Notes under the pieces: generated by a model
The model's input: the letters and a program-made list of their open reading frames with translations, nothing else
What the model was told of the DNA's origin: nothing
Database searches by the model: none
Translations under genes and position numbers: made by a program
Part shown: piece after piece, positions 846-33,982 of the stretch
Numbering within the stretch: the stretch's first letter is position 1
How the letters are laid out: each line of letters starts with the position of its first letter
IMG/VR virus record: IMGVR_UViG_3300020440_000031
Location: 1 to 40,748 of that record
DNA: 40,748 bases
Origin: a virus
Taxonomy: Duplodnaviria; Caudoviricetes
Strand: one strand, 5' to 3'

Positions 846-3800
846 TTAGACTACTCCACTATTTGGAGCAGTACGCAACTGTGTACCAGTAAGTGCATCA
901 ATTATCTGTACATCATTGACTGTAGCCGCATTGACAAAAATTTCATTTGCCTGTGAGCGTATTTCATATAAATCACCAAAACTTTTCAGTGGATCAGTTG
1001 GTACAAGTACAACTGAACTGATGATGCTTCCTAATCTATCATGTAGGTAAGCACTGAGTTCACTGAAGAAAAACGTATCACCAAAATCCCAATTATCGAT
1101 AGTAAAGTATGTGTTCATTGCACTTACAACTTGACTTTTTATTTCACTTACACTTGCAGTGCTGGCAGTATTTTTTACACATTTTATTGTTGCTTGTAAT
1201 TCAACTGCGGCCTTTGTACCAAAAAGAGGTTTGAATGTTACACTATTCAGTATAATATTATCACTGATCATTTTGTATTGATCCAGCGTACTATAACTTG
1301 TGGTTAACTCATCTATTGTTGGCTTTGCTGGCTCAGCTACAGTTCCGGTACTGTCACGAATAAAGTTCTGATAAGCAATATAATAAGATTGTGTAACTAG
1401 ATACAAGTCGATTATGTTTGTAGTTCCTGGGTCAATACGTCTACTCAACGGAGCATTGTGTCGATACTGAAAGTACAAACCTTGTCTTCCTGTATATGTT
1501 TCGTATCCTGTTACTTCTGCTATGGTTCTTGTTCCTTCGTAGTCGACTGTGAGCTGATAGAACTTTTTGTCTGTATATGCATAAAACACTTGCTTGTCGG
1601 GATACTCGCTTTTAACAAGTTCAATTGCAGATTTTGTAGCAAAAGAACCTATTACTGTACCTTCTGCTAATGGCAAATATCTTTCTAGGTTATCAAAATC
1701 TACTGTTTGTTGTAGATAAATTCTTTTGTTATTAGGATTGACAGTTGGAGCAACAAGTGTTTCAAAATAATCTGGATTGTCTGGAATACCGTCGTTGTCA
1801 GAATCTTTATAGGATATTCTTACTCTAAAGTCATCTACAAAACCATCTGCTTCTACAGGCTGATCGATAATATCTAAAACTTCATCACTATTAAGTGTCG
1901 AACTGCTATCTGGTAAATTGTTTGTCTTTAGTACGTTTATAAAATCATTTATAACTGTACCAGTTTTTGGATCATAAACTTTTTGTGTACCATCATAAAA
2001 AAATCTTGTTTCCAAAACACTAGCCCAAAAACGTTGCAAACTACGAGAACTAACTGTATATGTAACACCATCAGTTTCGAAAGCAACTAACCAACTGTTA
2101 TCTAAACCTGTGCCGCTGGTATTCTGTGCATTGGCAAGGCTGAAAGTTGTTGCACTATTAAGATTTGTGCTTGTGATCACATACCAAGTTTCGGATGTAT
2201 TATCATAACCAAGACCAAAATCTCTATATAGTTCTATGTTTTCACGCATTGTTGTTTCGATTGCAACTGGCAAATCTGTTACAAAGTTAGGAATAACTTG
2301 TGTTGGTACTGCATTAGTCGGAATAAAATTATTAAGCGTAACTGGACCAGTTCCATCAGCATTGTTACCAACTCCAAAATTAGTACCATCAAGTTCTAAT
2401 GCTGTTACAGTTGCCCATAAAACCATTTTATCACCGGGCAATGTTGGAGATCCAACTGCTAGTCTGTTAGTTGCAGTAAAATATTGTCCAGCTGGTGGAG
2501 TAAATTTTACCAGTCCACCTTTGGCAATGTATTTTTTATTATCACTTGCCTGCGGCCCAACTGGTGCTGGTGCATTATTAGACACAAATCTAAAAAAACC
2601 AGTAGTTTCGTTGTTGCTTGTAGTGCTTTGACTCCAGTTTAGATTTAATCCAGTTAACGAAGGACGTAAGAAGTTTTGATAATAAAACTCCTGCATTCCT
2701 CTACTTGCTAGTACGGGTTCAACTTGATTAACAATAACATCAGTTATATCATTTTGATCAACAAATGTAAAAGTAAAACTTGGTACCGCAGTATTCTCGT
2801 ATATCATGCCATCACTGGCAAAAATATTTGTACTTGAGTATTTTCCAGTGATATCAACAAGATCCAAGTATCTACTAGTACCAATTGAGCTTCTATTTAC
2901 AGCTTTGGACTTGATTATAGTTGAATAAAGTGTATATGGAAAATTATTATAATCTTCACCGTTTACCATTCTGTTCTGTGTATAGAACCTAGCTGGTGCA
3001 CGTTGTTTGATGTCGTTTATATTTTCTCTATTAGCAGCGTTGCTTACGGGTTGTGTTAATGCACAAGTAAAAGTTATTGTTTCGTTACGCCCAGTACGAC
3101 TTACATATGCAATTGATATTGTAACATTTTGCATTTCGTCTTGATTGATTATATAATTCAATCCATTGGATGCACGCACATAAGTTCTAAAACTGCCAAC
3201 TGGTATACTACTGAATACACCATCTCCAAAATTAAGATTTATTTGATCATTGGTTCTTGATGTTATGGAAAAATATCTTCGTTGCTCAGGAGTAAGTTCT
3301 TCTACTGCTCCACTGTAAATGTTTTCAACATATTCCCATTCGTTTTCGATATTGCCTTGAGAATTAAGTTGATACAACCAAACATCTTCATTGTTAATTC
3401 CTTCGATGTTGACATTTACAACTCTGTTTGAAATTCTTTCACCCAGATTGAAATCTAGATCTTGTAAACTACCTTGTTTGAATAGGAAGAAAAAGCCAGT
3501 GTTTGCACTTGCAAAACCTTGTTTATCATTTCTATAAAGTATATTAAAGGCACCATTTGGTGCAGGCGAAGGTTCATATACATAGGTTTTGTCTTGCGAT
3601 GTAGCACATACTGCTTCAAAACCCATTGCAGTGCCGTTAACTGTGCTTGTAAATGGTATAACTGGCAAGAACCCTTGCAGTAAATTGATAGCATACTCAT
3701 CAGTTTGTACACCTAAAATGGTTTGTGAATTAGCAGGACGACCAAAACGTTGACTGTTATCCAATGCTGCATTGATTATAACTGTGAATTGCTCTAACCA

Positions 3801-4253
3801 ATTTGCGTTTGTAGTGTCATTCCAATTTACTGTGATATTTGATAGGTTTACACCAGTAAAATCAACTACGCCTTCTGTGGTGCTTATGCTCTGTACTTTT
3901 AGAAATCCTTGTGCAGCAGTATTACGTTTAGGTGTATAACTTACTAATTCTGCTAGTCTGTTGACACTGTCTCTTCTTTCGGCAGTATCGATAAAATTTT
4001 CTCTGGTGTTGAGATCATTTCTAAAACTACCTGCTTGTCCCATAAATGCCATAACATCGAGTAGTGCAATAAATTCACTTGACTCGATATAGTCATTAAA
4101 ACTTTCTGGATAGTATAAGCGTATATAATCGATAAAGCTCTTGCGAAGTGTTTCAAAATCATAACTTTGAAAGTCTGCTTCACGGTATGTCTGGTAGATT
4201 CTTTTCCAATCTTCAACACCAAATATACTAGTCTGTCTTGTAGTCTTAGCCAT
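846..4253 (-). CDS. gp6: Baseplate wedge subunit, T4 gp6-like
   Basis: N-terminal DFQSYDFETLRKSFIDY...ESSEFIALLDVMAF...RENFIDTAERRDSV..LAELVSY; internal FGDGVF and IKQRAPARFYTQNRMVNGEDY motifs typical of gp6/baseplate J; adjacent to gp25. Confidence 0.9.
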   Translation of the reverse strand: MAKTTRQTSIFGVEDWKRIYQTYREADFQSYDFETLRKSFIDYIRLYYPESFNDYIESSEFIALLDVMAFMGQAGSFRNDLNTRENFIDTAERRDSVNRLAELVSYTPKRNTAAQGFLKVQSISTTEGVVDFTGVNLSNITVNWNDTTNANWLEQFTVIINAALDNSQRFGRPANSQTILGVQTDEYAINLLQGFLPVIPFTSTVNGTAMGFEAVCATSQDKTYVYEPSPAPNGAFNILYRNDKQGFASANTGFFFLFKQGSLQDLDFNLGERISNRVVNVNIEGINNEDVWLYQLNSQGNIENEWEYVENIYSGAVEELTPEQRRYFSITSRTNDQINLNFGDGVFSSIPVGSFRTYVRASNGLNYIINQDEMQNVTISIAYVSRTGRNETITFTCALTQPVSNAANRENINDIKQRAPARFYTQNRMVNGEDYNNFPYTLYSTIIKSKAVNRSSIGTSRYLDLVDITGKYSSTNIFASDGMIYENTAVPSFTFTFVDQNDITDVIVNQVEPVLASRGMQEFYYQNFLRPSLTGLNLNWSQSTTSNNETTGFFRFVSNNAPAPVGPQASDNKKYIAKGGLVKFTPPAGQYFTATNRLAVGSPTLPGDKMVLWATVTALELDGTNFGVGNNADGTGPVTLNNFIPTNAVPTQVIPNFVTDLPVAIETTMRENIELYRDFGLGYDNTSETWYVITSTNLNSATTFSLANAQNTSGTGLDNSWLVAFETDGVTYTVSSRSLQRFWASVLETRFFYDGTQKVYDPKTGTVINDFINVLKTNNLPDSSSTLNSDEVLDIIDQPVEADGFVDDFRVRISYKDSDNDGIPDNPDYFETLVAPTVNPNNKRIYLQQTVDFDNLERYLPLAEGTVIGSFATKSAIELVKSEYPDKQVFYAYTDKKFYQLTVDYEGTRTIAEVTGYETYTGRQGLYFQYRHNAPLSRRIDPGTTNIIDLYLVTQSYYIAYQNFIRDSTGTVAEPAKPTIDELTTSYSTLDQYKMISDNIILNSVTFKPLFGTKAAVELQATIKCVKNTASTASVSEIKSQVVSAMNTYFTIDNWDFGDTFFFSELSAYLHDRLGSIISSVVLVPTDPLKSFGDLYEIRSQANEIFVNAATVNDVQIIDALTGTQLRTAPNSGVV

Positions 4254-6940: not shown

Positions 6941-9900
6941 TTATTTAAAAGCACCTGAAGTGGTTCCGCCACCTCTGTTGCCCACTACTGTTGCGCCTGC
7001 TTTTACTCTGCGTTTGGATGCTGCAAGTCTTCGTTGTGTCCTTCTTTTCAACAACGAACCGCCAAATCCTGTATTACCGCCAGCATCATCACTTACAGTG
7101 TTACTGCCAGGTTTAGGTGGAACTAGTGGTTGCGAACCTCCTGGGTTACCACCTACGGCTGCTGAACTTCCGGCATAATCCACATCGCCATTTATTCCTG
7201 ACTCTGTAATACGTCTTGTGGACGCATTATTTACTGCAGGTCTTGGCTTAGGAACTATTTCACTTGCTTTATTGTCCAATGGTGTAAGCCCACTTGGTCT
7301 TGTTGAACCCGAGATATAATCAGGTGGACGATTTACACCAGTAGGTGTACCGCTTGAACCTTTACCTCTTGGGTCAAGAAAATCTCCGCCGCCTCTTGAT
7401 CCCACAGGCACTGGTGTTTTCTTACTGGTTCTAACAGTTTCTCCAGAGCCGCCAAAAGCATCCAAGCCAGGTTCTTCAACTACATTAGATTGTAATTTTT
7501 TCTGTGCTGGACTATCAACCGCAGTATCAAAAGTTCTAATTGCACCATGTAAACGTTGTGTAAACTGTCCTGCTTTGAAATAATTATATATTTCAATACC
7601 AGAAAACACAATGCTTTCTTGTGCAATGTTAGTTTCTCCGGTTATACCACTTTTCTTAAAATTTTCTTTAAACACAGGTGTTAGTCCTGTAGCCATGTCG
7701 TAGTCAACTACTCGATTAAAACGTATTTCATATAGGACTTCACTGCTATTACTATTAACACTACCGTCAGCTTCAAAACTTCCAAGGGTAACTTTGTTAT
7801 AAAAAATTTCACTTTGTGTAATAAAATCTGGATCTCCAACTATTGTAATTTGGCTTTTAGCAACGTCTGCTGGACTATATAACCTTGATGCTAGTTCTGC
7901 AGCTGGACGAGTACTTTCGCCTTCTCCACCTTGCATGCTTTGACTAGGAGCAGTTTGAAAAAATTTCTTTTCTGCAAAACGTGCATCTCCTACAACAGTA
8001 TCTGATTCATCATTCAAACCATCTTTACCAACTGATTGAAGATAGTTACTGTTTACATCAATTTCAAAATCCATTACTTCTGTGTTTTGCCCTGTAAACC
8101 AATAGTTAAAAAGTTTATGTACTCCTCTGTACATTGCTGGAGGAAAATATGGAGAACGTGGAGTGTTAATTTGATATCTGCTAACAAAATATTTTATTCT
8201 GTACGCATAGTCTTTACGTTTTTGATCATAACCAATAGGCGTTGCAGTTTGTGTAATTCTATACCATTGCACTGTTTTTACTGGCGGATTTTCAATTCTG
8301 GCACCTGTTTTTTCGTCAAAGGCAACTGTTTGTTGTGCAGTTATATAGGTGCTGTTTTTTATTACCTGATCAATCAACTGAGTTATTTGTGTACCTGCAG
8401 CTATACTATATTCTCTACTGTCTACATCTAACGCTTGTTTGCCCTGATTAAGTTTTTGATTTGGATCTGGGTTGGTTTGCATTGCAGTGCGTTTTTTATC
8501 TACAGTGCCTTGTTTTTTCATCTTGGCATCTTTAAGTCCTGCAACATCTTCTAGTTCAATGATGTATTCGTCTGGTATTAAATAGCCTTTCTTTTCAACA
8601 ATATCACGCTGATGTTGATTTAAGGCATCACTAAGTCCTTGGGTAACAGTTCGGTCAGCAAGACCAACTTTTTTTGCTGGTGGAGTTCTTTCAGCTACTT
8701 CAAGAGCTTCGTCATCGTCTGTGTCTGCAATCTGACGTTGCGAGTCTAACAGTTGTGTGTTTCCGTTTAGGAGTGTCTGCACATCACCAGCACTCAGTTG
8801 AAAATTAAATGGTATTGTTCCCCTGGCAGTACTGTATCCTACTGTGGTTTGCGGAACTGTTGCTTCAACATTGTAAACCACTGCGTCTGTATTAACTTTA
8901 TAGGTTATGTTTGAAAATTGAAATGGTATAAATTTTTCTACAAGTGCATTAGGATCACTGGTTTGCTCTGCACCACTTGCAGGATCACTGCTCACTAGAT
9001 TTCCTTGATCATCGTATCCGTAGAATCGTATAACCATTAAAAACGTTTGCGAGTTGACATTAACATCTTCTATATTCTCATGAGCGGCACATGCCTGCGA
9101 CAATCTGCTTAACAATGTTATACCTTGAGGTTCAAGTATATTGAATTTCATGGTTTGTACATTATGTGGAGATTGTGTTTCTTGTGTTCCAATAGCACAA
9201 CGTATTTCAAGATCTTCAATGTAAAAGTCTAAATCAAAGTATTCATTGCGTTGTCCAACTGGTGCACCGCCTGATTGAATAATCAACTGATCTCCAGGCA
9301 GAACTTTTTTATCAGTTGAAAGTAGCTGTTTGTATTCATCAGTATTCATGATATAGATAGAAATACTGTAGGTTTGACTTGCTAAACTTGCTAGTTTATT
9401 TGGTGTAGGAACAATGGTTTCCATGAATTCTGATGCCACTGCAACCCTTCCTTCAACCACCTGACTAGCATTACCAACACTGTTAGGTGTTGTTGTGGTT
9501 GAATCATCATCGGTTGCACGTGTCAAAGCGCCACCTGTGCCACCGCTTTCTACTGTTGTTGAGACGCCGTTTGGTCCAACAGGTCCTTTGTTTTGTGTTT
9601 GCGAAAGTTTTACAACGGGTTGTGCACCGCCCACAGTACTAGTTGAACCAGACCCTTTGTTGTCTCCGAGTTGCTGGTCTTCGAAGGTTCTTAGATTGCT
9701 TTGAGTAGCATTTGAAGGTTTGTTTAAACTGGTAATTACGGGTTTTACCTCTTGATCAACATTGTCAAAAAAGAAATTATCGCCAGCAATAGGCGTAGTA
9801 AATCTTGCAGTGTCAACAGATGCAATTGATTCATTTTTAACAATTGATCCAGCACTATCACGTGGTAGATTGTTTGTTACTTCAAAGCTGTTTTCATTTT

Positions 9901-12845: not shown

Positions 12846-13736
12846 ATGCCACAGGTGAGAACACCTAGAAAAGTAAACTATCTAAACAACAGAGATATTT
12901 TAAAAGAAATTTGGAAAAGCAAAAACACTTACTGTTCATATCTAGAACGCGAGTATGCACAGTACGATATAATTGTACCAAGTGTTGACAAAATAAATCA
13001 ACGCACTGTTGCCGAAGCCAGACGAAACAAAGCTGATAGAATCAAAAGAGAAACTGGCGAGATCGTTAATCCTGTTAAACTCAACAACCAGGAACTGGTG
13101 TTTCGTGTTGTTTGTTGGGATCATATTCCAATGGTACCAAAAAAACTCACCAAAGCACAGGAAAAGAAAAAAAGCAAATTAGAAGAACTGCTGGAAATGG
13201 ACGATGTAGATATCGAAGATGATGGATTACAAGAACTCATGAGCGATGTTGAACAAGATCTCAACTATGTAAAACTTAACTTTCCTCCTTTTTGGCACTA
13301 CATGATTGATGAAAATCGTATTCCATATGTTGTTGGTAAATCGCATTGGGTAGGTGGCATGGAAAACGGATATTTTTCTAAAGATCATGGCAAAATGACA
13401 GACAAACTTGCACACATGTTTATAAAACTGTGTGAACGTTATGCAACAAGGTCAAACTGGCGTGGCTACACATACAATGAAGAGATGCGTGGACAAGCAT
13501 TGTTGCAATTGAGTCAAATTGGCTTACAATTTGATGAGAGCAAATCGCAAAATCCATTTGCATACTACACTGCTACTATAACAAACAGTTTTACTAGAGT
13601 CTTAAACATAGAAAAGAAAAATCAAAACATAAGAGATGATATACTTGAACAAAATGGATTGAATCCAAGTTGGACAAGACAGTTCAACAACTCACCAGAC
13701 GCAAAAAAACTACAACCAGAATTGGCTAAAAAATAG
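12846..13736 (+). CDS. gp55: Late transcription sigma factor, T4 gp55-like
   Basis: NYLNNRDILKEI N-terminus; LCERYATRSNWRGYTYNEEMRGQAL...FDESKSQNPFAYYT...NSFTRVLNIEKK; followed by gp47/gp46 as in T4-like phages. Confidence 0.9.
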   Translation: MPQVRTPRKVNYLNNRDILKEIWKSKNTYCSYLEREYAQYDIIVPSVDKINQRTVAEARRNKADRIKRETGEIVNPVKLNNQELVFRVVCWDHIPMVPKKLTKAQEKKKSKLEELLEMDDVDIEDDGLQELMSDVEQDLNYVKLNFPPFWHYMIDENRIPYVVGKSHWVGGMENGYFSKDHGKMTDKLAHMFIKLCERYATRSNWRGYTYNEEMRGQALLQLSQIGLQFDESKSQNPFAYYTATITNSFTRVLNIEKKNQNIRDDILEQNGLNPSWTRQFNNSPDAKKLQPELAKK

Positions 13737-13744
13737 GAATATAC

Positions 13745-14758
13745 ATGGGTTTGTTTAAAAAAGCTCTCGTGTTTACAGATATTCACTTTGGCATGAAAAG
13801 CAATAGCATCATGCACAACCAAGACTGTGAACAATTTGTTGAATGGGCAGTACAACAAGGCAAGTTGCATAACTGCGAAACTGCTATATTCATGGGCGAT
13901 TGGCATCATCACAGAGCCAGTCTAAGTTTACAAACCATGCACCATAGTCTACGTGCATTGGAAAACCTATCAAGAAGTTTTGACATCACTTACTTTATTA
14001 CAGGAAACCACGATTTGTACTACAGAGACAAACGTGATATCTATAGTTTTGAATGGGCTCGTCATATACCTAACCTAAAAATATGCAACGATTGGTTTGA
14101 ACAGGATGATGTAATACTGTGTCCTTGGCTGGTTGGGGACGATCATAAGCAGATAAAAACTGCAAGTGCCCAGTACATGTTTGGACATTTTGAACTTCCG
14201 CACTTTAAAATGAATGCCATGGTTGAAATGCCTGATCATGGAGAAATCAAATCAGAACACTTTCAGCAGTATGGCACAGTGTTCTCAGGACATTTTCATT
14301 TGCGTCAGCAGAAAAACAACATCAACTATATCGGCAATGCGTTCCCACACAACTTTTCTGATGCAGGAGATGACCAACGTGGTTGTATGATACTTGAATG
14401 GGGCAAAGAACCAGAATACATTGCTTGGCCAGATCAACCATTGTACAAAGTACTTGACTTGTCGCAGGTAATTGACTATGCTGATACCATACTGAAGCCA
14501 AAGATGCATGTTCGAGTAAATTTAGACATAGAAATATCCTATGAAGAAGCAAACTACATCAAAGAACAGTTTGCAACCAAGTACAAACTGCGTGAGATGG
14601 CACTTATACCAAACAAACGCAGTGCCTTAGAAGAAGAACTACAACCCGGAGACATAAAGTTTGAAAGTGTTGATCAAATTGTCACAGAACAAATTATAAA
14701 CATTGATTCAGAGTTCTATGATAACAAACTGTTATTAGAAATCTACAGAAGTCTGTAA
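13745..14758 (+). CDS. gp47: Recombination endonuclease subunit gp47 (Mre11/SbcD-like)
   Basis: Metallophosphoesterase motifs TDIHFG, GDWHH, GNHD, GHFE, SGHFH. Confidence 0.92.
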   Translation: MGLFKKALVFTDIHFGMKSNSIMHNQDCEQFVEWAVQQGKLHNCETAIFMGDWHHHRASLSLQTMHHSLRALENLSRSFDITYFITGNHDLYYRDKRDIYSFEWARHIPNLKICNDWFEQDDVILCPWLVGDDHKQIKTASAQYMFGHFELPHFKMNAMVEMPDHGEIKSEHFQQYGTVFSGHFHLRQQKNNINYIGNAFPHNFSDAGDDQRGCMILEWGKEPEYIAWPDQPLYKVLDLSQVIDYADTILKPKMHVRVNLDIEISYEEANYIKEQFATKYKLREMALIPNKRSALEEELQPGDIKFESVDQIVTEQIINIDSEFYDNKLLLEIYRSL

Positions 14759-14760
14759 TT

Positions 14761-15348
14761 ATGCTTTACACAAATTTTATCAAAATAGTTAAACAGTATG
14801 TGAACATTTTAGATATACTTAGTGTGCCAACCTTTGATCAAGACTTTGACGTGTTAAGAAATAGATTACTCAAAACAAAAAAACAAGAGTATAATCACAG
14901 AGATTATTATGTAATAGAACATTATGATCCACAATATTATTTGCCACATTGTCCATATAGTCTAACCACTTTCAATCTAGTACGCACATTTCAGGAAGTT
15001 GATATATCTTTAGGAAGAACAATAATATTTACAAACAATCTTGGATACATCAATGAGTTCAAAGTATTAATACCAGAAGACTTGCATCAGTTTGGCTTAC
15101 CAATTGTGTTTGACAAATACCTGTCAAACATGCCTTTTACTCATATTAAAAGTCAAGATTGTAAAGATTATCAAGATATTCCTATCAACAATACAAAAAT
15201 TGAAAAAAATTGTTTAACCATGATTGGAAAAGACCGAGTGCATCGCAATGTATTGTATACGCATATCAAAACAAATGACTACCTAAACCAAATTGCTACT
15301 GTATATAATGGAGGCGACCGCACACCTTTTTACAAAGGACCATTATGA
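14761..15348 (+). CDS. Hypothetical protein
   Basis: 195-aa ORF tightly packed between gp47 and the next gene; no motif recognised. Confidence 0.65.
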   Translation: MLYTNFIKIVKQYVNILDILSVPTFDQDFDVLRNRLLKTKKQEYNHRDYYVIEHYDPQYYLPHCPYSLTTFNLVRTFQEVDISLGRTIIFTNNLGYINEFKVLIPEDLHQFGLPIVFDKYLSNMPFTHIKSQDCKDYQDIPINNTKIEKNCLTMIGKDRVHRNVLYTHIKTNDYLNQIATVYNGGDRTPFYKGPL

Positions 15349-15893
15349 AGGTTAGGATCTATACTAATACAAAAACCAGAAACAACGAAAACTGGAATAC
15401 CTATGGAACATTCCAAACTGGCATACATCAAAAATACAAAGATCCAATTATCACTGGTGAATCAGCAGGACACGATAAGATTGGTACAAAGCATTTCCAG
15501 CAACAATTTTATCAAAAAATTGGCATTGATATTGTAACAGAAACTGTTTTTGATTACCCTTATCCTAGCATCACAGAAAAAATATTGAGACCAATTTTGA
15601 ATAAAAGAATGTTTTTGGTTGTAGGACCTGCTTATACCTTGCAATTCTTAAAGACTAAAGGATTCCAAACATTTAGTCCTTTTATCAATGAAGACTACGA
15701 TGAAATACATAATCCTATTGATCGAATGAATTTTTTGTTACAAGAAATAGATCGTTTGGTAACATTACCAATTGACTCTATACGTGATGCCGTGTTAAAC
15801 TATAAATCAGTATTAGATTCAAACTTTACTACTGTTGTGAACTTAGAAAAACTCGAACTAGAAGATTTAAAAGATAGATTATCAAAAATATGA
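15345..15893 (+). CDS. Putative glycosyltransferase-like domain protein (GT10/fucosyltransferase-like TEK motif)
   Basis: IVTETVFDYPYPSITEKILRPI...FLVVG...LKTKGFQTF..FINEDYD resembles the GT10 'ITEK' motif; ATGA overlaps at both ends. Confidence 0.5.
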   Translation: MKVRIYTNTKTRNNENWNTYGTFQTGIHQKYKDPIITGESAGHDKIGTKHFQQQFYQKIGIDIVTETVFDYPYPSITEKILRPILNKRMFLVVGPAYTLQFLKTKGFQTFSPFINEDYDEIHNPIDRMNFLLQEIDRLVTLPIDSIRDAVLNYKSVLDSNFTTVVNLEKLELEDLKDRLSKI

Positions 15894-17647
15894 TTCAAGT
15901 CAAAGACCTTACAGTAAAAAATTTTATGAGTGTAGGTAATGCTACACAAGCTATCAACTTTGATAGACAGGATCTCACATTGGTATTGGGAGAAAATATC
16001 GACTTAGGTGGTGATGGATCACGTAACGGTACTGGTAAAACTACTATAATAAACGCACTGAGCTACGCACTGTATGGAGAAGCACTAACAAACATACGCA
16101 GAGATAATCTCATAAACAAAACCAATTCAAAAGGCATGCTGGTTAGTTTAGACTTTTGTATTGGAGAACAGTGCTACAGAATTGAACGTGGACGTAAGCC
16201 AAATGTATTAAAATTTTATATAAATGACAATGAACAACTAGCAGAAGATTACGCACAAGGCGACAGTAGAGAAACACAAGGTGCAATACTAAAACTGTTG
16301 TGTATGAGCCATACTATGTTCAAGCATCTTGTGGCACTAAACACCTACACTGAACCTTTTTTAAGTTTAAAACAAAACGATCAAAGAGAAATAATTGAAC
16401 AACTGTTAGGTATTACACAACTCAGTGAACGTGCAGAAAAAATCAAAGAACTTAGCAAACAGACACGTGATGATATCAAACAAGAAGAAATGACCATTAA
16501 AGCATTGCAAACTGCTAATGATAAGATTGGTGAACAAATACAAGCACTCAAACGAAGACAAACACTGTGGATGAACAAAAAAGCAGAAGATGTCAAAAAG
16601 TTTGAAACTGCTATCAACGACCTTGCACATGTTGATATCGAAGCTGAACTATCTGCACATGCTGAACTTGCCAGTTGGACAGAATTAAATAATACACAAA
16701 TACAACTACAAAAAGACATTGCCGCACTAACTGCACAGATTACTAGAGCAGAAAAAGATGTTGCCAGGACTAAACGTGCATTAGAAAGTTTAGAATCAGG
16801 AACCTGTGGTAGTTGTGGACAAAGTGTTGCACACATGGAAACACATCAACAACATGTGGCAAAGGCACAGGAGGAATACAATGGGGCAAGTGATTTCCTT
16901 AGAGAAGTACAGGAAGGTATTGATGCACTCAAAGCAGATAAAAAAGAAATACCAGCGAGACCAAGAGTTTTTTATGATAGCCTGTCTGATGCACACAATC
17001 ATCGATCAACACTATCCTCACTTGAAACACAGTTACAAAGCAAACGTGCAGAAGCCGATCCTTACATTGATCAAATAGTAGAAATGCAAACCACTGCCGC
17101 TACTGAAATATCCTATGACAAACTAAATGACCTTACAAGACTACATGATCATCAAGACTTTTTACTAAAACTGCTAACAAACAAAGACAGTTTTGTTCGT
17201 AAACGTATTATTGATCAAAATCTCAGCTACTTGAATTCAAGGCTTACACACTACCTGGATCGAATAGGCTTGCCACACACAGTCGTATTTCAAAACGATT
17301 TGACTGTTGAAATACAAGAACTTGGTAGAGATCTAGACTTTGATAATCTTAGTAGAGGTGAAAGAAATCGGCTAATTATTAGTATGAGTTGGGCTTTTCG
17401 TGATGTATGGGAGAGCCTGTACGGAGCTATTAACTTACTTTTTATTGATGAAATGATTGATTCGGGCATGGATACTTCGGGTGTTGAAGCTGCACTAGCC
17501 TTGCTAAAGAAAATGGCAAGAGAACGTGGCAAAAGTATTTGGTTGGTATCACACAAAGACGAACTAGCAGGGCGTGTAAATAATCTGTTGAAAGTTGTAA
17601 AAGAAAATGGCTTTACAAGTTATAGTACAGATGTTGAAGTTGCTTAA
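15890..17647 (+). CDS. gp46: Recombination ATPase subunit gp46 (Rad50/SbcC-like)
   Basis: VKNFMSVGN; Walker A NGTGKTT; coiled coil with zinc hook CGSC; signature LSRGE; Walker B LLFIDE; VSH. Confidence 0.93.
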   Translation: MIQVKDLTVKNFMSVGNATQAINFDRQDLTLVLGENIDLGGDGSRNGTGKTTIINALSYALYGEALTNIRRDNLINKTNSKGMLVSLDFCIGEQCYRIERGRKPNVLKFYINDNEQLAEDYAQGDSRETQGAILKLLCMSHTMFKHLVALNTYTEPFLSLKQNDQREIIEQLLGITQLSERAEKIKELSKQTRDDIKQEEMTIKALQTANDKIGEQIQALKRRQTLWMNKKAEDVKKFETAINDLAHVDIEAELSAHAELASWTELNNTQIQLQKDIAALTAQITRAEKDVARTKRALESLESGTCGSCGQSVAHMETHQQHVAKAQEEYNGASDFLREVQEGIDALKADKKEIPARPRVFYDSLSDAHNHRSTLSSLETQLQSKRAEADPYIDQIVEMQTTAATEISYDKLNDLTRLHDHQDFLLKLLTNKDSFVRKRIIDQNLSYLNSRLTHYLDRIGLPHTVVFQNDLTVEIQELGRDLDFDNLSRGERNRLIISMSWAFRDVWESLYGAINLLFIDEMIDSGMDTSGVEAALALLKKMARERGKSIWLVSHKDELAGRVNNLLKVVKENGFTSYSTDVEVA

Positions 17648-18054
17648 TGTTTACAATAGAAATTTTCCACGATCAATTAACAGAATACAAACTTTTTGTA
17701 GACGAACAACTTATTTCTGAAGGAATGTGCAACCGGACTGTAGAGCTGTGTGTTCCAGAATCTTTGGTTAGTATTTGGTTTTATCCATGGAAAATAGTAC
17801 CAACCATTAGAATAAACAATTTTATAGTCAATACCGGTCTTGCTGAGATTGATTTATACGATCATAAATTTGATGTAGAGTTAACAAACGACTTTTACCA
17901 AAAATATCATCAAAACGATATTGCCAGTAGAATGGATTTGTTTTATCAAACTGACAATGGTAAAAATAACGAACAATTATTTGACGAGATAATTGGCTTT
18001 AACACTCACGATGATGTTGTTAAACAAATTAAAAAGGTATTAGATGTCAGATAA
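17647..18054 (+). CDS. Hypothetical protein coupled to radical SAM gene
   Basis: 135-aa ORF overlapping the gp46 stop and the start of the radical SAM gene. Confidence 0.65.
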   Translation: MFTIEIFHDQLTEYKLFVDEQLISEGMCNRTVELCVPESLVSIWFYPWKIVPTIRINNFIVNTGLAEIDLYDHKFDVELTNDFYQKYHQNDIASRMDLFYQTDNGKNNEQLFDEIIGFNTHDDVVKQIKKVLDVR

Positions 18055-19513
18055 ATTTGTTTTTGTATATGTGCCGATACAAACTGTAAGTTACCCATCT
18101 GCTGCTTATGGAATGCTAAAACCTGTTATAGACCGGAACAAATTAACAAGTGAATTGTGCGATCTTAACATACTCCTGAATAAAGAGCTTTCTAACAGTG
18201 AATTTGATGATCTATACAACTGGTCTGCATATGCTAAATCAGAGATCACTACAAAATTGAAAAATAAAGTGGTGGAAATTGCTTGTAAAAAATTAGGTAA
18301 TTTCAATGGCTGGTTAGCATTTAGTGTATTCAGTTTTTACAATGCAAGAATTGTAAATTTGTTGCTAAGGCATATGAAAGACAAGCAAAGAAATTTCAAA
18401 ATTTTACTAGGTGGTAATGGATGTAGTTCTTCATTAGCCGAATTTGATAACAAAGAATTTGGACACTATTGCCTGGATAACAAATTATGCGATTATGTAA
18501 TTTTTGGCGAAGGAGAAGTTGCACTCAACGAATTGTTAAAGGGAAATGACACCTATCCTGGTATTAATAAAAGTAATTTTCAACAAATCACAAACTTAGA
18601 TCTTTTGGAGTTTCCTGATTATAAAGGTATAGACTGGTCTGCTTATGTTGATCCAAGACTGATGATTACAGGAAGCAGAGGTTGTGTTAGAAAATGTACA
18701 TTTTGTGATATTGAACTTTCTTGGCCAAAATTTAGATATCGCAGTGCAGAAAACATTGTGGAAGAAATTAAGAAAAATTTTTACGAAACAGGAATCACAC
18801 AATTTGAATTCACTGATAGTTTGATAAACGGTAGTATAAGCAACTTTGACAAGTTCAATAAATTACTAATAGAAGAAAAAGCTAAAGATTCAGCTCTTGC
18901 TGATATAACCTATACTGGGCAGTTTATATGCCGGCCGCAAAAACAGATGCCAGAACAAACCTATGAATTAATGCACAACGCCGGATGCACACAAATCACA
19001 GTTGGTATTGAAAGTTTCAGTGAAAGTATTCGAGATCACATGAAGAAAAAATTTAGCAACGAAGATATAGATTACCATTTTGAAATGTGTGGTCGTTGGA
19101 GTATTCCAAATATACTATTGCTTATAATTGGATATCCAACTGAAACTGAACAAGATCACCAAACAAACATCAATGCTCTTTACAAATACAAAAAGTATAG
19201 TGACATGGGAACAATTTTTATGAGTCGTTGGGGTTTTACAATGCACATATATGACGGAACTCCAATAAGTGCAATGAAAGAAGAATTAGGAATAAGAGAC
19301 AATAATAGTAATGTACACGGAGATGCAGTTTTTAATTGGATCAGCACTAAAAATCCGGGATTAGACTTAGCAGAAAGAATTCGACGTAGAGTTGAATTAC
19401 ACGAAATAAGTCATAGGTTAGGATACACCATGCCTAACAGTCGTAAAGAATTACAAACCTTGTTGAGTATTGCAAAAGACTATACAAAACAGAAAAATTT
19501 GGTTGCACAATGA
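18044..19513 (+). CDS. B12-binding-domain radical SAM protein
   Basis: GSRGCVRKCTFC (CxxxCxxC); N-terminal ILLGG...DYVIFGEGE cobalamin-binding-like domain; GIESFS; IIGYPTET. Confidence 0.85.
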   Translation: MSDKFVFVYVPIQTVSYPSAAYGMLKPVIDRNKLTSELCDLNILLNKELSNSEFDDLYNWSAYAKSEITTKLKNKVVEIACKKLGNFNGWLAFSVFSFYNARIVNLLLRHMKDKQRNFKILLGGNGCSSSLAEFDNKEFGHYCLDNKLCDYVIFGEGEVALNELLKGNDTYPGINKSNFQQITNLDLLEFPDYKGIDWSAYVDPRLMITGSRGCVRKCTFCDIELSWPKFRYRSAENIVEEIKKNFYETGITQFEFTDSLINGSISNFDKFNKLLIEEKAKDSALADITYTGQFICRPQKQMPEQTYELMHNAGCTQITVGIESFSESIRDHMKKKFSNEDIDYHFEMCGRWSIPNILLLIIGYPTETEQDHQTNINALYKYKKYSDMGTIFMSRWGFTMHIYDGTPISAMKEELGIRDNNSNVHGDAVFNWISTKNPGLDLAERIRRRVELHEISHRLGYTMPNSRKELQTLLSIAKDYTKQKNLVAQ

Positions 19514-19917
19514 TGTGGATGTATAAAGGCAAACAAGTATCAGATATTCCAGAAGAATTTATTGGATTTGTATATCTAATTACAAATACAACAAATAATA
19601 GACGATATATAGGTAAAAAACTTACACAATTCAAACGCAGTAAAAAACCACTCAAAGGCAGAACCAACAAACGTAGATACACAGTTGAATCAGACTGGCG
19701 TGATTACTATGGAAGTAGCGACGAGCTTTCTGCTGATGTAGAAGCACTGGGCAAAGACAAGTTTAAACGTGAAATATTATTTTGGTGTAAGAGCAAAAGT
19801 GAACTGAGCTACATTGAAGCAAGAGAACAATTTACACATAAAGTACTAGAATCAAAACAATGGTATAACGGGCACATACGGGTTCGTGTACACCAAAAAG
19901 GCATTTTAAAAGAATAA
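19510..19917 (+). CDS. Stand-alone GIY-YIG nuclease domain protein (Seg-like, catalytic domain only)
   Basis: GFVYLITNTTNNRRYIGKK; YYGSS; FKREIL; conserved E (SYIEAREQF); YNG; no C-terminal DNA-binding domain in 135 aa. Confidence 0.8.
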   Translation: MMWMYKGKQVSDIPEEFIGFVYLITNTTNNRRYIGKKLTQFKRSKKPLKGRTNKRRYTVESDWRDYYGSSDELSADVEALGKDKFKREILFWCKSKSELSYIEAREQFTHKVLESKQWYNGHIRVRVHQKGILKE

Positions 19918-19919
19918 TT

Positions 19920-20390
19920 AAACCCCCAGATAATAATGTCATAAACAATATGACACAGGCACTACTAGAGCAATGCTCAGAGCAACTTTTTAAATTTCCC
20001 AAGATAATATGACATCGTTTGATCGAGGATGCTCGATCCACCTTGAAGTTTGCCAACGTGAGTTGTAGCCAACAGAACTGGTGCGTCAAAGGATATAGCT
20101 AACTTAAGGCTAGAATGATATGGGCTCTGTGAAACAGATACAACCCATGCGTTAGTATACTTTGCTTGAATGGGTATACATAACGTTCCGTTGTGAGACA
20201 AGGCTAGAGTAAGGGGTACAGCACAACCGCCCCTGTTACAATGTAAATCTCTTTATTCATGTGACTGGACCAACTCAGATGATGACAGTTAACTTGCCCG
20301 TAGTAGGGCAAGTATGACTAAACTATCTAGATGATAACGGAGTAATTGTTGCTGAACGATAGTGAAGCAAAAGATGTCTTTAGACATCTA
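19920..20390 (+). ncRNA. Candidate large structured non-coding RNA (family not recognised)
   Basis: Only long intergenic stretch in the window; more than 10 stems read by eye (see findings), including a GUGA GNRA loop and G-U pairs that favour the plus strand. Confidence 0.6.
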
Positions 20391-20402
20391 ATAAGTATGT
20401 TT

Positions 20403-21002
20403 ATGGGTCTGATTAAGTTTAAACATTATACAAAAAATATAGCAATAGTACGCAATCATAAATGCAGTACCACGACTATGTTGAGTTATGTAGCACAAGC
20501 ACTGTGGAATGCAGATCCAAAAGAAGAACAGTACTATCAAAACTTTCAAAACGAACGTCCAGGAGTTTATAATAAGGCTAGGCAATTTGACGAATATAAG
20601 GAGGATCTGCTTGATGCTGATCTACGAATCGCACTGTGGCGTGATCCTATTGAAAAGTTTGTAAGTGGGTTTCATCATACAATGAGCAATCCTGCAAATA
20701 AAAATTTGTGGATCAAAACTCCAAGTTTGTTAAACTTTGTTAAAGATATTGATGTGTATAGACAGAATCCAAATGTAGCAGATCATTGCGAAACAAACAC
20801 CGCACGATTAGGCAAAGACAAAAGCATTTACACACACATATACAATTATAAACAGGTGCACAAGATAGCAGAACTGCTCGGAGTACCAGCATTGGATACG
20901 CATCATCGCAAAGACAACACCATGCGTGCCGGACCGACTGATCTACAGAAACTGCGTATTAAACAGGTGATGTTAGAAGATTATGTAAATGGTTGGTGCT
21001 AG
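20403..21002 (+). CDS. Sulfotransferase family protein (Sulfotransfer_2-like)
   Basis: 5'-PSB-like RNHKCSTTTM and 3'-PB-like WRDPIEKFVSGF motifs; C-terminal YxED-like MLEDY. Start revised from TTG 20346 to ATG 20403 (or 20397), after ATAAGTA at 20391-20397. Confidence 0.7.
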   Translation: MGLIKFKHYTKNIAIVRNHKCSTTTMLSYVAQALWNADPKEEQYYQNFQNERPGVYNKARQFDEYKEDLLDADLRIALWRDPIEKFVSGFHHTMSNPANKNLWIKTPSLLNFVKDIDVYRQNPNVADHCETNTARLGKDKSIYTHIYNYKQVHKIAELLGVPALDTHHRKDNTMRAGPTDLQKLRIKQVMLEDYVNGWC

Positions 21003-21316
21003 TCTGGATAGTCTCTATAGAGAAAGTGTTGTATGGTTTCTCCATCAACCCACTTATTGAAGCCTACATGTTCTGTTTCAATATCATCCGCATTGGATAC
21101 CACATGCGACATAGCATCATCTAGTGCCTGCATGGTTTCAAATTCCATATCAATTCTAAACTCTGGCAAGTCCATTGAACGGAATCCTAGCTTCATTCTT
21201 GTGATTCTGTAGGCATGCATAGTGGGTAATTTATCTAGGAAAAGCTTCATGTTAGCAACAAAAGTTCGTGCATCTATACCTTCTTTTACATCGGCATAAA
21301 CTGTGTAAACGTTCAT
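20999..21316 (-). CDS. DUF6614-like small alpha/beta protein
   Basis: MNVYTVYADVKEG...YRITRMKLGFRSMDLPEFRIDMEFETMQALDDA...FLYRDYPD; family call from memory of the pattern. Confidence 0.55.
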   Translation of the reverse strand: MNVYTVYADVKEGIDARTFVANMKLFLDKLPTMHAYRITRMKLGFRSMDLPEFRIDMEFETMQALDDAMSHVVSNADDIETEHVGFNKWVDGETIQHFLYRDYPD

Positions 21317-21747
21317 TATAATCTTCCTCCTAGTATTTCAAAGCCGTCAATTTTTGTTTTATAATCATCTGCTTGACCGAGATACAAATAGTCAAAACCA
21401 CGTTTTTTATATATTGCACACTCGTTTTTTAGACTGCGTATGCCTAGTCGCAAAGCTGGATTCCCATAGTCCCAAGCAAACTGTAAGGCTTCTACATTTT
21501 TCTTATTATAGCATCTAAGTAAACTAAATGCAACCAGTTTTTCTTCCTTGTTGTAGTAACCGTATACTTCGTTTTTTTCATCATAGTATTCTTCGGGAAA
21601 GATAGGCATTACACTTTTGAATTGTTTGTACTTGCAGTAAGCATCATAGATTGGTTCCAGTTGATGCGGAAACGGACAGGTAATTTTTTTACAGTTTGGC
21701 ATGAGATCATAGTTTGTCTGACTAAGATCAATTCTTGCGTATATCAT
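21316..21747 (-). CDS. Aminoacyl-tRNA-protein transferase C-terminal-like (ATE_C/Bpt, GNAT fold) protein
   Basis: YYNKEEKLVAFS...FAWDYGNPALRLGIRSLKNEC..YKKRGFDYLYLG...YKTK matches the ATE_C pattern (LG.ys.l.ei...g..Y.YLG...YK). Start revised to ATG 21747, overlapping the upstream TGA. Confidence 0.6.
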   Translation of the reverse strand: MIYARIDLSQTNYDLMPNCKKITCPFPHQLEPIYDAYCKYKQFKSVMPIFPEEYYDEKNEVYGYYNKEEKLVAFSLLRCYNKKNVEALQFAWDYGNPALRLGIRSLKNECAIYKKRGFDYLYLGQADDYKTKIDGFEILGGRL

Positions 21748-22253
21748 TTTCTTGGATCTTTTCTGTGTGCAAATACTTCTTGCAGGTATTCCTCGTTCCA
21801 TCCATCATAGTAGCCTCTGTGTGCTAACATACGTGCATGGTCGTTTAGTTTGGTTTTGTCTTGTATTAATACTAGTGCATATTTACCCATATTGAAACAA
21901 ACACCGTTGTGTGTTTCAACAGTGTCAGGATGATCTGCTAGTGCTAGTAGATTGCGTTTTCGAAAACCTTTGCTTGTGTTCATTGTGTCGACTGCCCAGT
22001 TGAAGTAGGCATCGTCATACTGATCAGGTGCATAGGCAAATATCACAACATCATTTTTACCCAAGTACTGTTTCTTAGCAAACAAAAATAGATCACGTTC
22101 AACATCTGCGCCTAGTCTTACGTCATATTTGTTTCTCAGTCTTGACTGTCTAGCAAACGGACAGGGTGGCCAATTGCCTAGTGCTGGATGAGGCACTTCT
22201 ACAAAGTTTACCAGCCAATCTTCTATATCGGCTTTTACTTGATCGATTACCAA
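21744..22253 (-). CDS. Hypothetical protein, DUF1415-like (CPFA motif)
   Basis: WLVNFVE...PPCPFAR...LADHPD...ALVLIQ; TTG start overlaps the upstream stop. Confidence 0.55.
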   Translation of the reverse strand: MVIDQVKADIEDWLVNFVEVPHPALGNWPPCPFARQSRLRNKYDVRLGADVERDLFLFAKKQYLGKNDVVIFAYAPDQYDDAYFNWAVDTMNTSKGFRKRNLLALADHPDTVETHNGVCFNMGKYALVLIQDKTKLNDHARMLAHRGYYDGWNEEYLQEVFAHRKDPRK

Positions 22254-22483
22254 AAGGGTTGTCCAGTCTTTTTTGCAGTTTCTAGGTTTTCCTTAATAAG
22301 ACTGCCTATGTATTCACGTTCTGGTTGACTCATATGTACTATTTCACTGTAGGTCACACCACCTCGCATGTACCATACCATTTTAAGCATGTCTTCTTTA
22401 AGGCCCTTAACTTCTTTGTCCATATCCTGAATAATCTTTTCAATACGTTCAGGAGAGGATGTTAAGAGCCTGATGCGAAAAAA
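22247..22483 (-). CDS. gp51-like tail/baseplate assembly chaperone ORF in the -1 frame of gp26 (internal ATG at 22423)
   Basis: Missed by the ORF track. Reads FFRIRLLTSSPERIEKIIQDMDKEVKGLKEDMLKMVWYMRGGVTYSEIVHMSQPEREYIGSLIKENLETAKKTGQPFW*; fills the gap exactly. Confidence 0.75.
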   Translation of the reverse strand, partial: FFRIRLLTSSPERIEKIIQDMDKEVKGLKEDMLKMVWYMRGGVTYSEIVHMSQPEREYIGSLIKENLETAKKTGQPFW

Positions 22484-23307
22484 TTAGCAACATTCAGTGT
22501 AAACGGAGTTTCGTATTGATTTTGACACTTGTCGCAGGTGATGTTCAATGGTTTTATTTCACTGGCTTCTTTGATGTGTTCAATCTTTTTTCGTATTTTA
22601 TCAAAGTGTTTGTTGTCGCAGTTTTGCAAGTATTCTTTGATGTGCGTTTTATCAACTACTATATCATCACCAGCTTGTATCATTGCTATGCTATCGGCTA
22701 TGGCATTGAGTGTGAGCAAACTTATATTGTTAAATGCTTGTTGTATTTTTTCTAGTTTCTCTTCTTCAGGCAAATCACTAGTTGGTAACGCTTCTAGCAT
22801 CTTTTGATCTTGGAATTGAACAAGACTGTTGTCATTTTGTTCTTTGTAGGTCAACGGTTTGAAATGAATACTAACATCACCATTTACAACAGGCGTAGAA
22901 TAATCTGGAACACTGATGCTTTCTAGGATTGTTCTAAGATCAATTCCAAAGTCACTTATTTCTTCGCACTTTGGACAGGTGCTTGTAAACTCCATTTCAT
23001 GACCATAACTGGCCATACGTATTGATATCAACAGTGTGTCTAGATCGGCAGTGCTTATCTGCCATGGGTCTTTGAATGCTGGCACACAACTTTTCACAAC
23101 ATTTGCAACTGCGGCTCCGTTGAATAATGCGTCAGCAGTACGATATGATATCTCATCCAATGCAGTCATTGGATACACAGGTAGCTCTCCGTTTTCTGGC
23201 ATGTCCACTATTGATTCATCATAGTATGCACCTTCACTTGGCAATTTTATATAGATTGCTGGTTGCCTAAAATGTTTTGCAAGTGGATTTTGTTGTTTTA
23301 CTTCCAT
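22462..23307 (-). CDS. gp26: Baseplate hub assembly protein, T4 gp26-like
   Basis: NPLAKHFRQPAIYIKLPSEG...PMTALDE...DLDTLLISIRMASYG...CPKC...CDKC...NFF; adjacent to the tape measure gene. Confidence 0.8.
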   Translation of the reverse strand: MEVKQQNPLAKHFRQPAIYIKLPSEGAYYDESIVDMPENGELPVYPMTALDEISYRTADALFNGAAVANVVKSCVPAFKDPWQISTADLDTLLISIRMASYGHEMEFTSTCPKCEEISDFGIDLRTILESISVPDYSTPVVNGDVSIHFKPLTYKEQNDNSLVQFQDQKMLEALPTSDLPEEEKLEKIQQAFNNISLLTLNAIADSIAMIQAGDDIVVDKTHIKEYLQNCDNKHFDKIRKKIEHIKEASEIKPLNITCDKCQNQYETPFTLNVANFFASGS

Positions 23308-33210: not shown

Positions 33211-33290
33211 ATAAATACCATTGCACAATAATGTGTTTATGCGGAAACCAACCGCGTACCCGCTAGAACGGGACTTTATAAGGAGAAAAC
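33211..33290 (+). promoter_or_regulatory. Late promoter and two-hairpin 5' leader
   Basis: ATAAATA 33211-33217; TATGCGG/CCGCGTA stem 33238-33258; CCCG/CGGG stem 33259-33272; AAGGAG SD. Confidence 0.6.
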
Positions 33291-33292
33291 AA

Positions 33293-33982
33293 ATGGGAAG
33301 ACCGTTAAAAATAAAAATATCCGATACACAAGATGCAGGATTTAATAACCCTGGTGATGATGTTGCAGGTAGAACACCAGCTGGAGAATTATTCTACGGA
33401 GTAGTTGGTGGAGACACTGCTACTAGTGATTATACATTTCCAGTGGTAAGCACAAGAATTAGACCAACAGGCGGTAGCATTACTGCTGAAGGCGATGGCT
33501 TTATTGTACGCCAAAAAGGAGCTTCGAAGTTCTTGGTATCAAGATTAGATGCAAGTGCAATTGACCCTGCAAACGCAGTGGTTGGTTCACAAATAAGAAT
33601 TGTAAGTGTCGGCGATACTGACTGGGTTGCAATGGGTGCTGGTGAAGGTACAATAGCAGTAGGTAAAATTTTTACTGTTACTGCGGCCGCTGGTGCTGGT
33701 ACTTCTGGTACTGCTGCTGAGTGCGGAATTTGCACACTAGCCGACGAAGCCGATGCCGCATTATCTACAGGAAGTATGACAGTAACTTATACTGATGTAG
33801 GATCAAGTGCAGTTCGTCTCAAACGTTTTAGCAACAAACATGGAATTTCATTTGCAAATAATCCAGTGTTGTTAAACTTCTTTAACATACTAGATGACAC
33901 AGTAAAGATTGGTGGATCAGGTTCATCTGCATCACCTGCAACACGTGATTTAGTACAAGTTGAGAATCCTTCATTAGGTTAA
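33293..33982 (+). CDS. Virion structural protein (possible head decoration)
   Basis: Starts MGRPLK at ATG 33293 with strong SD; FIVRQKGASKFLV motif; follows the major capsid gene. Confidence 0.6.
   Translation: MGRPLKIKISDTQDAGFNNPGDDVAGRTPAGELFYGVVGGDTATSDYTFPVVSTRIRPTGGSITAEGDGFIVRQKGASKFLVSRLDASAIDPANAVVGSQIRIVSVGDTDWVAMGAGEGTIAVGKIFTVTAAAGAGTSGTAAECGICTLADEADAALSTGSMTVTYTDVGSSAVRLKRFSNKHGISFANNPVLLNFFNILDDTVKIGGSGSSASPATRDLVQVENPSLG

Follow-up and report, generated by a model that had tools for sequence, protein, structure and literature searches.

A conserved twin-box element beside a GIY-YIG nuclease gene in T4-like jumbo phages, possibly an R-loop-primed replication origin

Introduction

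In a 40,748-nt stretch of viral DNA (IMG/VR record IMGVR_UViG_3300020440_000031; the whole stretch is called the window below), the gene of a small GIY-YIG nuclease is followed by a gap, 19918-20390. An initial annotation, made from the letters of the sequence, had read this gap as a densely folded RNA that might supply specificity or a scaffold for the nuclease. The locus thus raises two questions: what is the element in the gap, and is the nuclease its partner? We found that the gap holds a real, ornate and mostly uncatalogued conserved phage element. In our preferred reading, to which we give a probability of about one half, this element would be an R-loop-primed replication origin, and the GIY-YIG enzyme an independent nuclease that cuts branches late.

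Results and discussion

The gap contains a conserved and covarying element

As the initial annotation had noted, the gap has no credible open reading frame (ORF): only two antisense ORFs with TTG starts (85 and 74 amino acids) and a TTG extension of the next gene were found in it. The conserved element covers 19957-20389, about 430 bases (Table 1). When viral GIY-YIG loci were picked by protein, an element homologue (E ≤ 1e-5) was present beside 73 of 80 loci; here and below, the locus counts of the viral and prokaryotic scans are among the matches listed. In 24 of the 73 a type A element lies downstream of the gene, in 15 a type A element lies upstream on the opposite strand, and 34 carry a second element type, type B, which has its 3' module in common with type A. 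Six of the seven loci with no homologue end at most 184 bases from the gene, and the seventh has an element in a neighbouring locus on the same contig.

Covariation was read from 75 anchored type A sequences, in which the covarying stems show three to five pair types. The pair 20122-20146 occurs as AT (24), GC (22), CG (6) and TA (4; n = 58), and the pair 20213-20233 as GC (36), CG (24), TA (8), AT (6) and TG (1; n = 75). Further covarying pairs are 20121-20147, 20129-20141 and, in the terminal stem, 20376-78/20383-85, while the pair counts of the last stem were out of register and were not used. In addition, a pseudoknot joins 20190-93 to the central hairpin's loop (20224-27); its pair 20193-20224 is GC in 60, AT in 8 and GT in 7 of the 75 sequences. 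G-U far exceeds A-C in the conserved stems (54:4 at 20150-52/20183-85 and 13:0 at 20213-15/20231-33), and therefore the plus strand is the folded one, as the initial annotation had argued from G-U pairs. The conservation and covariation behind homologous nucleases that it had proposed to look for are both present.

Nine of the stems that it listed lie where it had placed them, whereas AGTT/AACT, CCTTGA/TCAAAGG and TTGCT/AGCAA appear only in a computed fold. Single-strand folding of the gap gave z values of -2.95 on the plus and -2.88 on the minus strand, and lower values were obtained for 2 of 10 control windows taken from other places. The folding energy alone is modest; the case for structure rests on covariation. 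One control window, 9001-9473, which lies inside a long minus-strand gene, folds with a z of about -3.5 (12 shuffles only).

No match of the window element was found in Rfam or by ARAGORN (group I and II introns, RNase P, tmRNA, tRNA, HEARO, GOLLD and ROOL). A possible likeness between ACAGCACAACCGCC and an RNase P junction was set aside, since Rfam lends it no support and the pairing differs. Blastn of the window element against cultured phages, and of the element of a related locus (L057) against phages and plasmids, gave no real match, and a motif scan of prokaryotic genomes found the element in none of 121 loci. Three viral scans revealed no small-island or satellite context except at one unclassified locus, L162, where the element (E 3e-12) lies beside terminase-like and tail-like genes without T4-type anchors. 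We also noticed that in locus L045, at about 3380-3810, an apparent type-A-like 5' piece is followed by a type B element, possibly a hybrid. A description of the window element was not found in the consulted parts of the literature, PMC11858733 included.

Judged by sequence comparison, the element is partly anticipated by the Rfam family Polynucleobacter-1 (RF01718; Weinberg et al., 2010, PMC2864571). RF01718 is the 5' third of the elements of relatives, whose remaining 290 nt are homologous to the window core; over the first 140 bases, 2 of 20 and 17 of 19 related loci score above the RF01718 gathering threshold (37 bits). The family model has 141 positions and does not include the core, the twin boxes or the tail. 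In the window, RF01718 gave no match at E ≤ 5, nor at E ≤ 10 in 19850-20450, and a hidden Markov model (HMM) of 38 RF01718-type 5' domains (CCUGG...CAGGGAYGGAA) found nothing at E ≤ 10, whereas an HMM of the full RF01718-bearing elements matches 20102-20387 with E 4.4e-27. The window thus carries a variant whose 5' domain differs, and it does not belong to RF01718 as modelled; its own 5' domain matches 13 of 81 type A elements, itself included. The Rfam search suggested in the initial annotation leaves the window element without a hit, but the novelty is reduced because relatives match RF01718 over the 5' third. The consulted part of PMC2864571 gives no function or phage context for Polynucleobacter-1. 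New in this analysis are the different 5' domain of the window, the co-change of boxes within a genome and the split between element and nuclease promoters, the last two described below.

Table 1. Coordinates of the element, its parts and the neighbouring anchors in the window
Feature	Position	Strand	Basis and remarks
gp55 late sigma, gp47, gp46	12846..17647	+	PHROG and Pfam, synteny; upstream anchor of the conserved slot
Stand-alone SegE-type GIY-YIG nuclease, 135 amino acids	19510..19917	+	PF19835 2.8e-37; phrog_447 4e-41; slot after gp46
Inverted repeat over a putative -10 box (CATAAACA, 19940-19947)	19937..19955	+	Upstream of the conserved body; predicted promoter
Predicted start and exchangeable 5' domain	19957..20101	+	At the place of RF01718 in relatives; different sequence (HMM, alignment)
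Conserved core	20102..20335	+	Stems 20120-20148 and 20150-20185; pseudoknot 20190-93/20224-27; central hairpin 20213-20233; last stem 20287-20319
Box 1, AGATGAT	20277..20283	+	Predicted partner: template strand at box 2
Box 2, AGATGAT	20329..20335	+	Identical to box 1, 52 bases downstream
Tail	20336..20389	+	A+T-rich stretch; GA-flanked mini-hairpin 20354-20365 (loop GATA); terminal hairpin 20372-20389; predicted single-stranded-DNA fold
Baseplate hub gene	22462..23307	-	PF12322; downstream anchor of the slot

Twin boxes change together

Two features had escaped the initial annotation, a pair of twin boxes and a DNA-type tail. The boxes flank the last stem of the element. A twin match of at least 7 bases was found in 88 of 96 type A and type B elements and one of at least 6 bases in 94, compared with 6.6% in a cross-element control. 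The RF01718-type elements of L057 and L074 also carry twin boxes. The sequence of the boxes varies widely, with 47 different best-match words among the 96 elements. A box identity of 1.00 in the type A alignment arises by construction, since 75 of its 81 sequences were anchored on the boxes, and was not used; 88 of 96 is the unbiased count. A generic scan for twin boxes was discarded, as shuffled sequences matched in 2-14 of 20 trials.

Within one genome the two boxes change together. The two elements of G004 (a genome of 330 kb, 93% complete) have ACATGAA and AGATAGA, each still twin. Similarly, the look-alike elements of cultured phages that we call type C have the boxes GCGTCAA (4 copies) and ACGTCAA (1 copy) in XaC1 and TCGTCAG (4 copies) and CCGTCAG (1 copy) in CBB, and each copy is twin. 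Taking the copies of PBECO4, CBB and XaC1 together, the boxes match over at least 6 bases in 14 of 14 and over at least 7 in 12 of 14, five of the 14 rows having been read by eye from the sequence. This co-change favours pairing over a fixed protein site. The reverse complement of the box is absent from 19918-20390 of the window and, of the 94 elements for which this was read, one has it internally. We infer that box 1 of the RNA pairs with the opposite (template) DNA strand at box 2.

The tail, the promoters and signs of transcription

The type of loop switches at box 2. In 75 elements, the 25,689 nt 5' of box 2 contain 51 GNRA loops and 12 GNA triloops, whereas the 6,365 nt 3' of it contain 16 GNRA loops and 39 GNA triloops, with 13 more of the latter on the minus strand. 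GNA triloops are especially stable in DNA. Of the 94 terminal hairpins found among the 96 elements, 53 have a GNA triloop. The 45 nt after box 2 have an A+T content of 65%, compared with 53% in the core and about 63% in the genome.

The inverted repeat that the initial annotation counted as the first stem of the RNA does exist, but it lies over a putative -10 box, ahead of the conserved body. The same -10 motif was seen at the same distance in L002, L003, L005 and L006; divergent loci have it too, preceded by TTGACC, and in the window the -35 is weak. Using patterns picked after inspection of the loci, we counted sigma-70-like promoters ahead of the element in 27 of 35 divergent loci (expectation 0.5), whereas the nuclease gene in these loci has a TAAATA late-type motif in 28 of 35 (5.4 expected). 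A sigma-70-like motif also precedes 13 of the 14 cultured copies. The only terminator-like hairpin in the window gap is on the minus strand (1 found, 1.1 expected); the initial annotation had noted that there is no poly-T terminator.

In the metatranscriptomes, which the initial annotation had proposed to search, contigs were found on the element in 6 of 7 RNA runs, X21 giving none. The contig of X18 covers 20007-20389 at a depth of 14.6 and with 24 differences, and that of X15 covers 19952-20195 and is identical. These contigs are a weak hint of transcription, because strand and ends cannot be read from contigs and the choice of runs was tied to the window stretch; the parts with no RNA cover carry no weight.

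The nuclease is probably a swappable neighbour

The minimal GIY-YIG ORF of the initial annotation was borne out. The protein scores 128 bits against PF19835 (cut-off 25), and Y22, Y33, G35, R55, E103 and N120 are invariant in 32 homologues; the catalytic roles of the Tyr, Arg, Glu and Asn are presumably those of I-TevI. The AlphaFold model is a confident single GIY-YIG domain (pLDDT 89) with a basic beta-hairpin at residues ~36-60. Its nearest fold is the catalytic domain of I-TevI (1ln0; Z 8.4, rmsd 2.7, 82 aligned), other matches being PD-T4-3 (Z 7.2), UvrC (5.5), T4 Endo II (5.4), HIGLE (3.9) and Slx1 (3.0-3.2); Foldseek and a PDB sequence search with the nuclease gave no significant match. 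Unlike I-TevI and the Seg enzymes, the protein is without the C-terminal DNA-binding domains of homing endonucleases. Its distribution is not sporadic and mobile: it is a single copy in the genomes G001 and G002, has a fixed slot after gp46 and occurs at one place per record in the 777 GenBank phage records that carry the family. The fold points to a domesticated homing-type domain. In locus L116 (4392-5459), the slot nuclease has 355 amino acids, the only long one among the neighbours, and the genome has several further GIY-YIG genes; this is a possible link to homing endonucleases.

When viral loci were picked by the RNA motif, the element was present in 71 of 80. A GIY-YIG gene accompanies 60 of these (31 on the same strand, 29 on the opposite one), a PD-(D/E)XK gene takes its place in 5, neither is present in 3, and 3 loci are truncated. 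Three unrelated nuclease folds fill the slot: GIY-YIG, PD-(D/E)XK and Endo VII. Both phrog_423 (Endo VII) and phrog_244 were identified there. G004 has a PD-(D/E)XK gene, two same-direction elements of two subtypes and no SegE-type GIY-YIG, and elements without GIY-YIG were also found in L086, L093, L102, L120 and L124. Conversely, the complete Melnitz genome has a 59%-identical nuclease with the basic hairpin intact and no element, and this nuclease is nested among element-linked ones on the tree. Co-occurrence of RNA and nuclease is thus not obligate. On a quick nuclease tree, in which some labels come from partial elements, type B requires 8 changes, at least 5 of them forced.

These findings bear on the proposal that the RNA guides the nuclease or serves as its scaffold, box 1 specifying a nick at box 2. 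The two are indeed usually adjacent, in 73 of the 80 protein-picked loci, in 60 of the 68 assessable RNA-picked elements and in 46 of 46 RF01718-type loci, adjacency is kept when the gene is inverted, and the enzyme has a basic beta-hairpin and no DNA-binding domain. The adjacency is strong, yet it is part of the fixed order gp47-gp46-nuclease-element-hub across relatives. Against the proposal stand the exchange of three folds in the slot, the occurrence of each partner alone, the separate promoter types, the repeated swaps of RNA subtype on the nuclease tree and the 777 records with the nuclease, none of which the window element matched by blastn. We therefore regard a guide or scaffold role as very improbable; on the sequence evidence, the nuclease is probably a swappable neighbour of the element and not its partner. 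The HEARO and omegaRNAs of IscB and TnpB (OMEGA) are likewise large structured RNAs beside a compact nuclease that end in a DNA hairpin, but here the nuclease pairing is not obligate, the fold is GIY-YIG and not RuvC/HNH, no transposon context was seen, and the variable box, which lies inside the element, matches its own locus.

Because two resolvase-type families can take its place, the GIY-YIG enzyme may itself cut branched DNA. T4 Endo VII resembles it in that Endo VII fills the same slot in PBECO4, XaC1 and CBB, although the two folds are unrelated. The resolvase role is drawn from slot replacement only, because the fold and the C-terminal Asn point to the I-TevI/homing side. Pfam Endonuclease_7 matched nowhere, not even in PBECO4, and thus says nothing on Endo VII in GIY-YIG genomes. 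The origin reading would suggest a role for a nuclease family that is mislabelled 'NAD synthetase' in PHROG, at odds with its GIY-YIG fold, and that 777 cultured phage records carry.

Look-alikes in cultured jumbo phages

In six cultured phages the slot gene adjoins a gap of 0.8-1.4 kb, which is annotated with tiny ORFs in PA5oct; the gene is Endo VII in PBECO4, XaC1 and CBB and PD-(D/E)XK in PA5oct, Phosso and RsoM2USA. A SegE-type GIY-YIG was found in none of five tested phages with an Endo VII or PD-(D/E)XK slot, while the same family matched in 3 of 5 genomes of another set. In Atu_ph07 (L364 9322-9561), a PD-(D/E)XK match extends over three short annotated ORFs, and the slot is without a large gap.

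The gap element of PBECO4 is of type C, and look-alikes were found at 291 places in 71 cultured phage records, with 2-5 copies per genome. PBECO4 has 4 copies, CBB 5 and XaC1 5, all in one direction within each genome; Sharanji likewise has 4 copies. From slot, architecture and the weak HMM match given below, we infer that type C is homologous to the window's type. The three other PBECO4 copies sit in gaps within same-direction gene runs, without an adjacent resolvase.

PA5oct offers a parallel by position only. Its ncRNA004 is transcribed from 246116-246734 (+) and makes up 0.08/0.03/0.02% of phage reads, according to the consulted part of Lood et al. (2020, PMC7318152). It overlaps a paralogue (246155-246276, 83%) of the PA5oct slot element and ends before the shared tail piece 246786-246817, but the PA5oct element has no sequence similarity to that of the window and no clear twin box.

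Three further explanations were weighed against these data. The first is an RNA that controls transcription, either a put-like antiterminator or a cis leader, in which the twin box would pause the transcript or tether it to the template. The element has its own putative sigma-70 promoters, the three other PBECO4 copies lie inside same-direction gene runs and the RNA contigs extend through the tail, all of which would suit such an RNA. The slot copy, however, often points into the convergent baseplate-hub gene, so that there would be nothing useful to read through, and the DNA-type loops are left unexplained; we consider this explanation unlikely.

The second, a little less likely still, is a platform for packaging or recombination, where the element would mark concatemer cuts or sites at which branches are made or resolved by whichever resolvase fills the slot. 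Its constant place beside gp46/47 and a resolvase-type gene in distant phages fits, and T4 Endo VII clears branches during packaging, as stated in the consulted part of a review (PMC3016281). The data can also be explained without any joint deleting the stretch between the boxes. On the other side, extra copies have no adjacent resolvase, the promoters look early and not late, and the terminal repeats of G001 are not at the element.

The third explanation is a selfish non-autonomous mobile element or ribozyme that spreads in jumbo-phage genomes, the boxes being recombination cores or target duplications. It could account for the 2-5 dispersed copies per cultured genome, the two subtypes in one genome and the exchangeable 5' domains. 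But the boxes are internal rather than at the ends and are identical across deep divergence, one copy keeps the fixed slot, the copies share orientation in 3 of 3 genomes, and a scan of 18 of the 180 neighbour clusters showed no recognisable transposase, integrase or reverse transcriptase. It seems improbable to us.

A possible R-loop-primed origin

In the preferred origin reading, host polymerase would transcribe the element early from the putative sigma-70 promoter, and the folded core would present box 1. Once the polymerase has passed box 2, box 1 of the RNA would invade the template DNA strand there and an R-loop would form at the A+T-rich stretch beyond. The displaced plus strand could then fold into GNA mini-hairpins that load helicase or primase, while the 3' end of the RNA, possibly trimmed by RNase H, would be extended by the phage polymerase and so prime replication. 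Late on, branches would be resolved by the nuclease, as they are by Endo VII in T4. The multiple same-direction copies in PBECO4, CBB and XaC1 were counted in favour of this reading, as was the RNase H gene of Phosso (L367 9837-10223), which lies at the far end of its slot gap.

The primer RNA II of ColE1 grips its template. The element would share with it, and with oriF and oriG of T4, a promoter, a template-held transcript (predicted here), an A+T-rich stretch and a single-strand hairpin signal; ColE1 uses fixed G/C stretches, whereas the twin here is 7 nt of free sequence. R-loops are used at oriF and oriG, and T4 uses at least five origins (PMC3016281, consulted in part), which resembles the several look-alike copies per genome. 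The same part of this review reports no common local motif among the T4 origins, in contrast to the ornate conserved fold of the element.

A number of observations weigh against an origin. The window's own fold predicts box 1 to be mostly paired, 7 bp is a weak grip unless protein or fold helps, and no convincing twin box was found in the gaps of PA5oct, Phosso and RsoM2USA. The terminal loop of the window is TTTA and not GNA, and the RNA contigs of three of the 7 runs (X16, X18 and X19) reach 20389-20399, through the supposed DNA tail. Skew is uninformative: in G001 and G004 it follows the gene strand, the slot copies lie 5-8 kb from the cumulative minimum, and the second G004 copy is at no skew switch. 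None of the 5 genomes searched yielded a family A polymerase, whereas ColE1 has a Pol I step. What ties type C to the window's type is the slot, the architecture and a weak HMM match over the central motif (best E 0.002). As for an independent nuclease, the close adjacency of GIY-YIG gene and element described above is unfavourable. The enzyme also keeps the C-terminal Asn, which is assigned to the UvrC/homing lineage in the consulted part of PMC1564403, and its fold resembles I-TevI (Z 8.4) more than Slx1 (Z 3.2).

A wider and more tentative idea, which we hold to be possible rather than likely, is that the element is the founding type of RNA-defined origins across PA5oct/Rak2-like jumbo phages, in which an internal, rewritable 7-base guide would invade matching DNA just downstream and the 3' end of the RNA would be passed to the replisome, few or no proteins being dedicated to the task. 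If true, this would be a programmable DNA-gripping RNA. How large T4-like jumbo phages start replication was not met in the consulted part of PMC13282480. The origin idea is directly testable because look-alike copies sit in cultured phages such as Sharanji on E. coli K-12, and the twin boxes provide a sharp genetic handle (single and compensatory double changes).

Genome setting and further features of the window

The window is a virus record of 40.7 kb, about 12% complete, and the sequencing runs that contain it are mostly marine. PHROG and Pfam recognise a T4-like gene set: gp55, gp47, gp46, baseplate hub, portal, protease and gp23. The closest cultured relatives of the hub gene by tblastn are Phosso, Atu_ph07, PA5oct and PBECO4, and on this basis the phage was grouped with the PA5oct/Rak2-like jumbo phages. 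In relatives, genes of 270-330 codons may be inserted between nuclease and element.

Tailoring-type genes flank the element on both sides (18044-19513, 20397-21002 and 20999-22253), at positions that vary freely among relatives. They are of radical SAM, sulfotransferase-like (an ORF with a weak Pfam match, in the relative L004), DUF6614 and Arg-tRNA-transferase-like types. In addition, an Rfam freshwater-2 RNA (RF02980; 60.8 bits, threshold 49.9) was found at 33222-33295 on the plus strand, between a hairpin after gp23 and the next gene.

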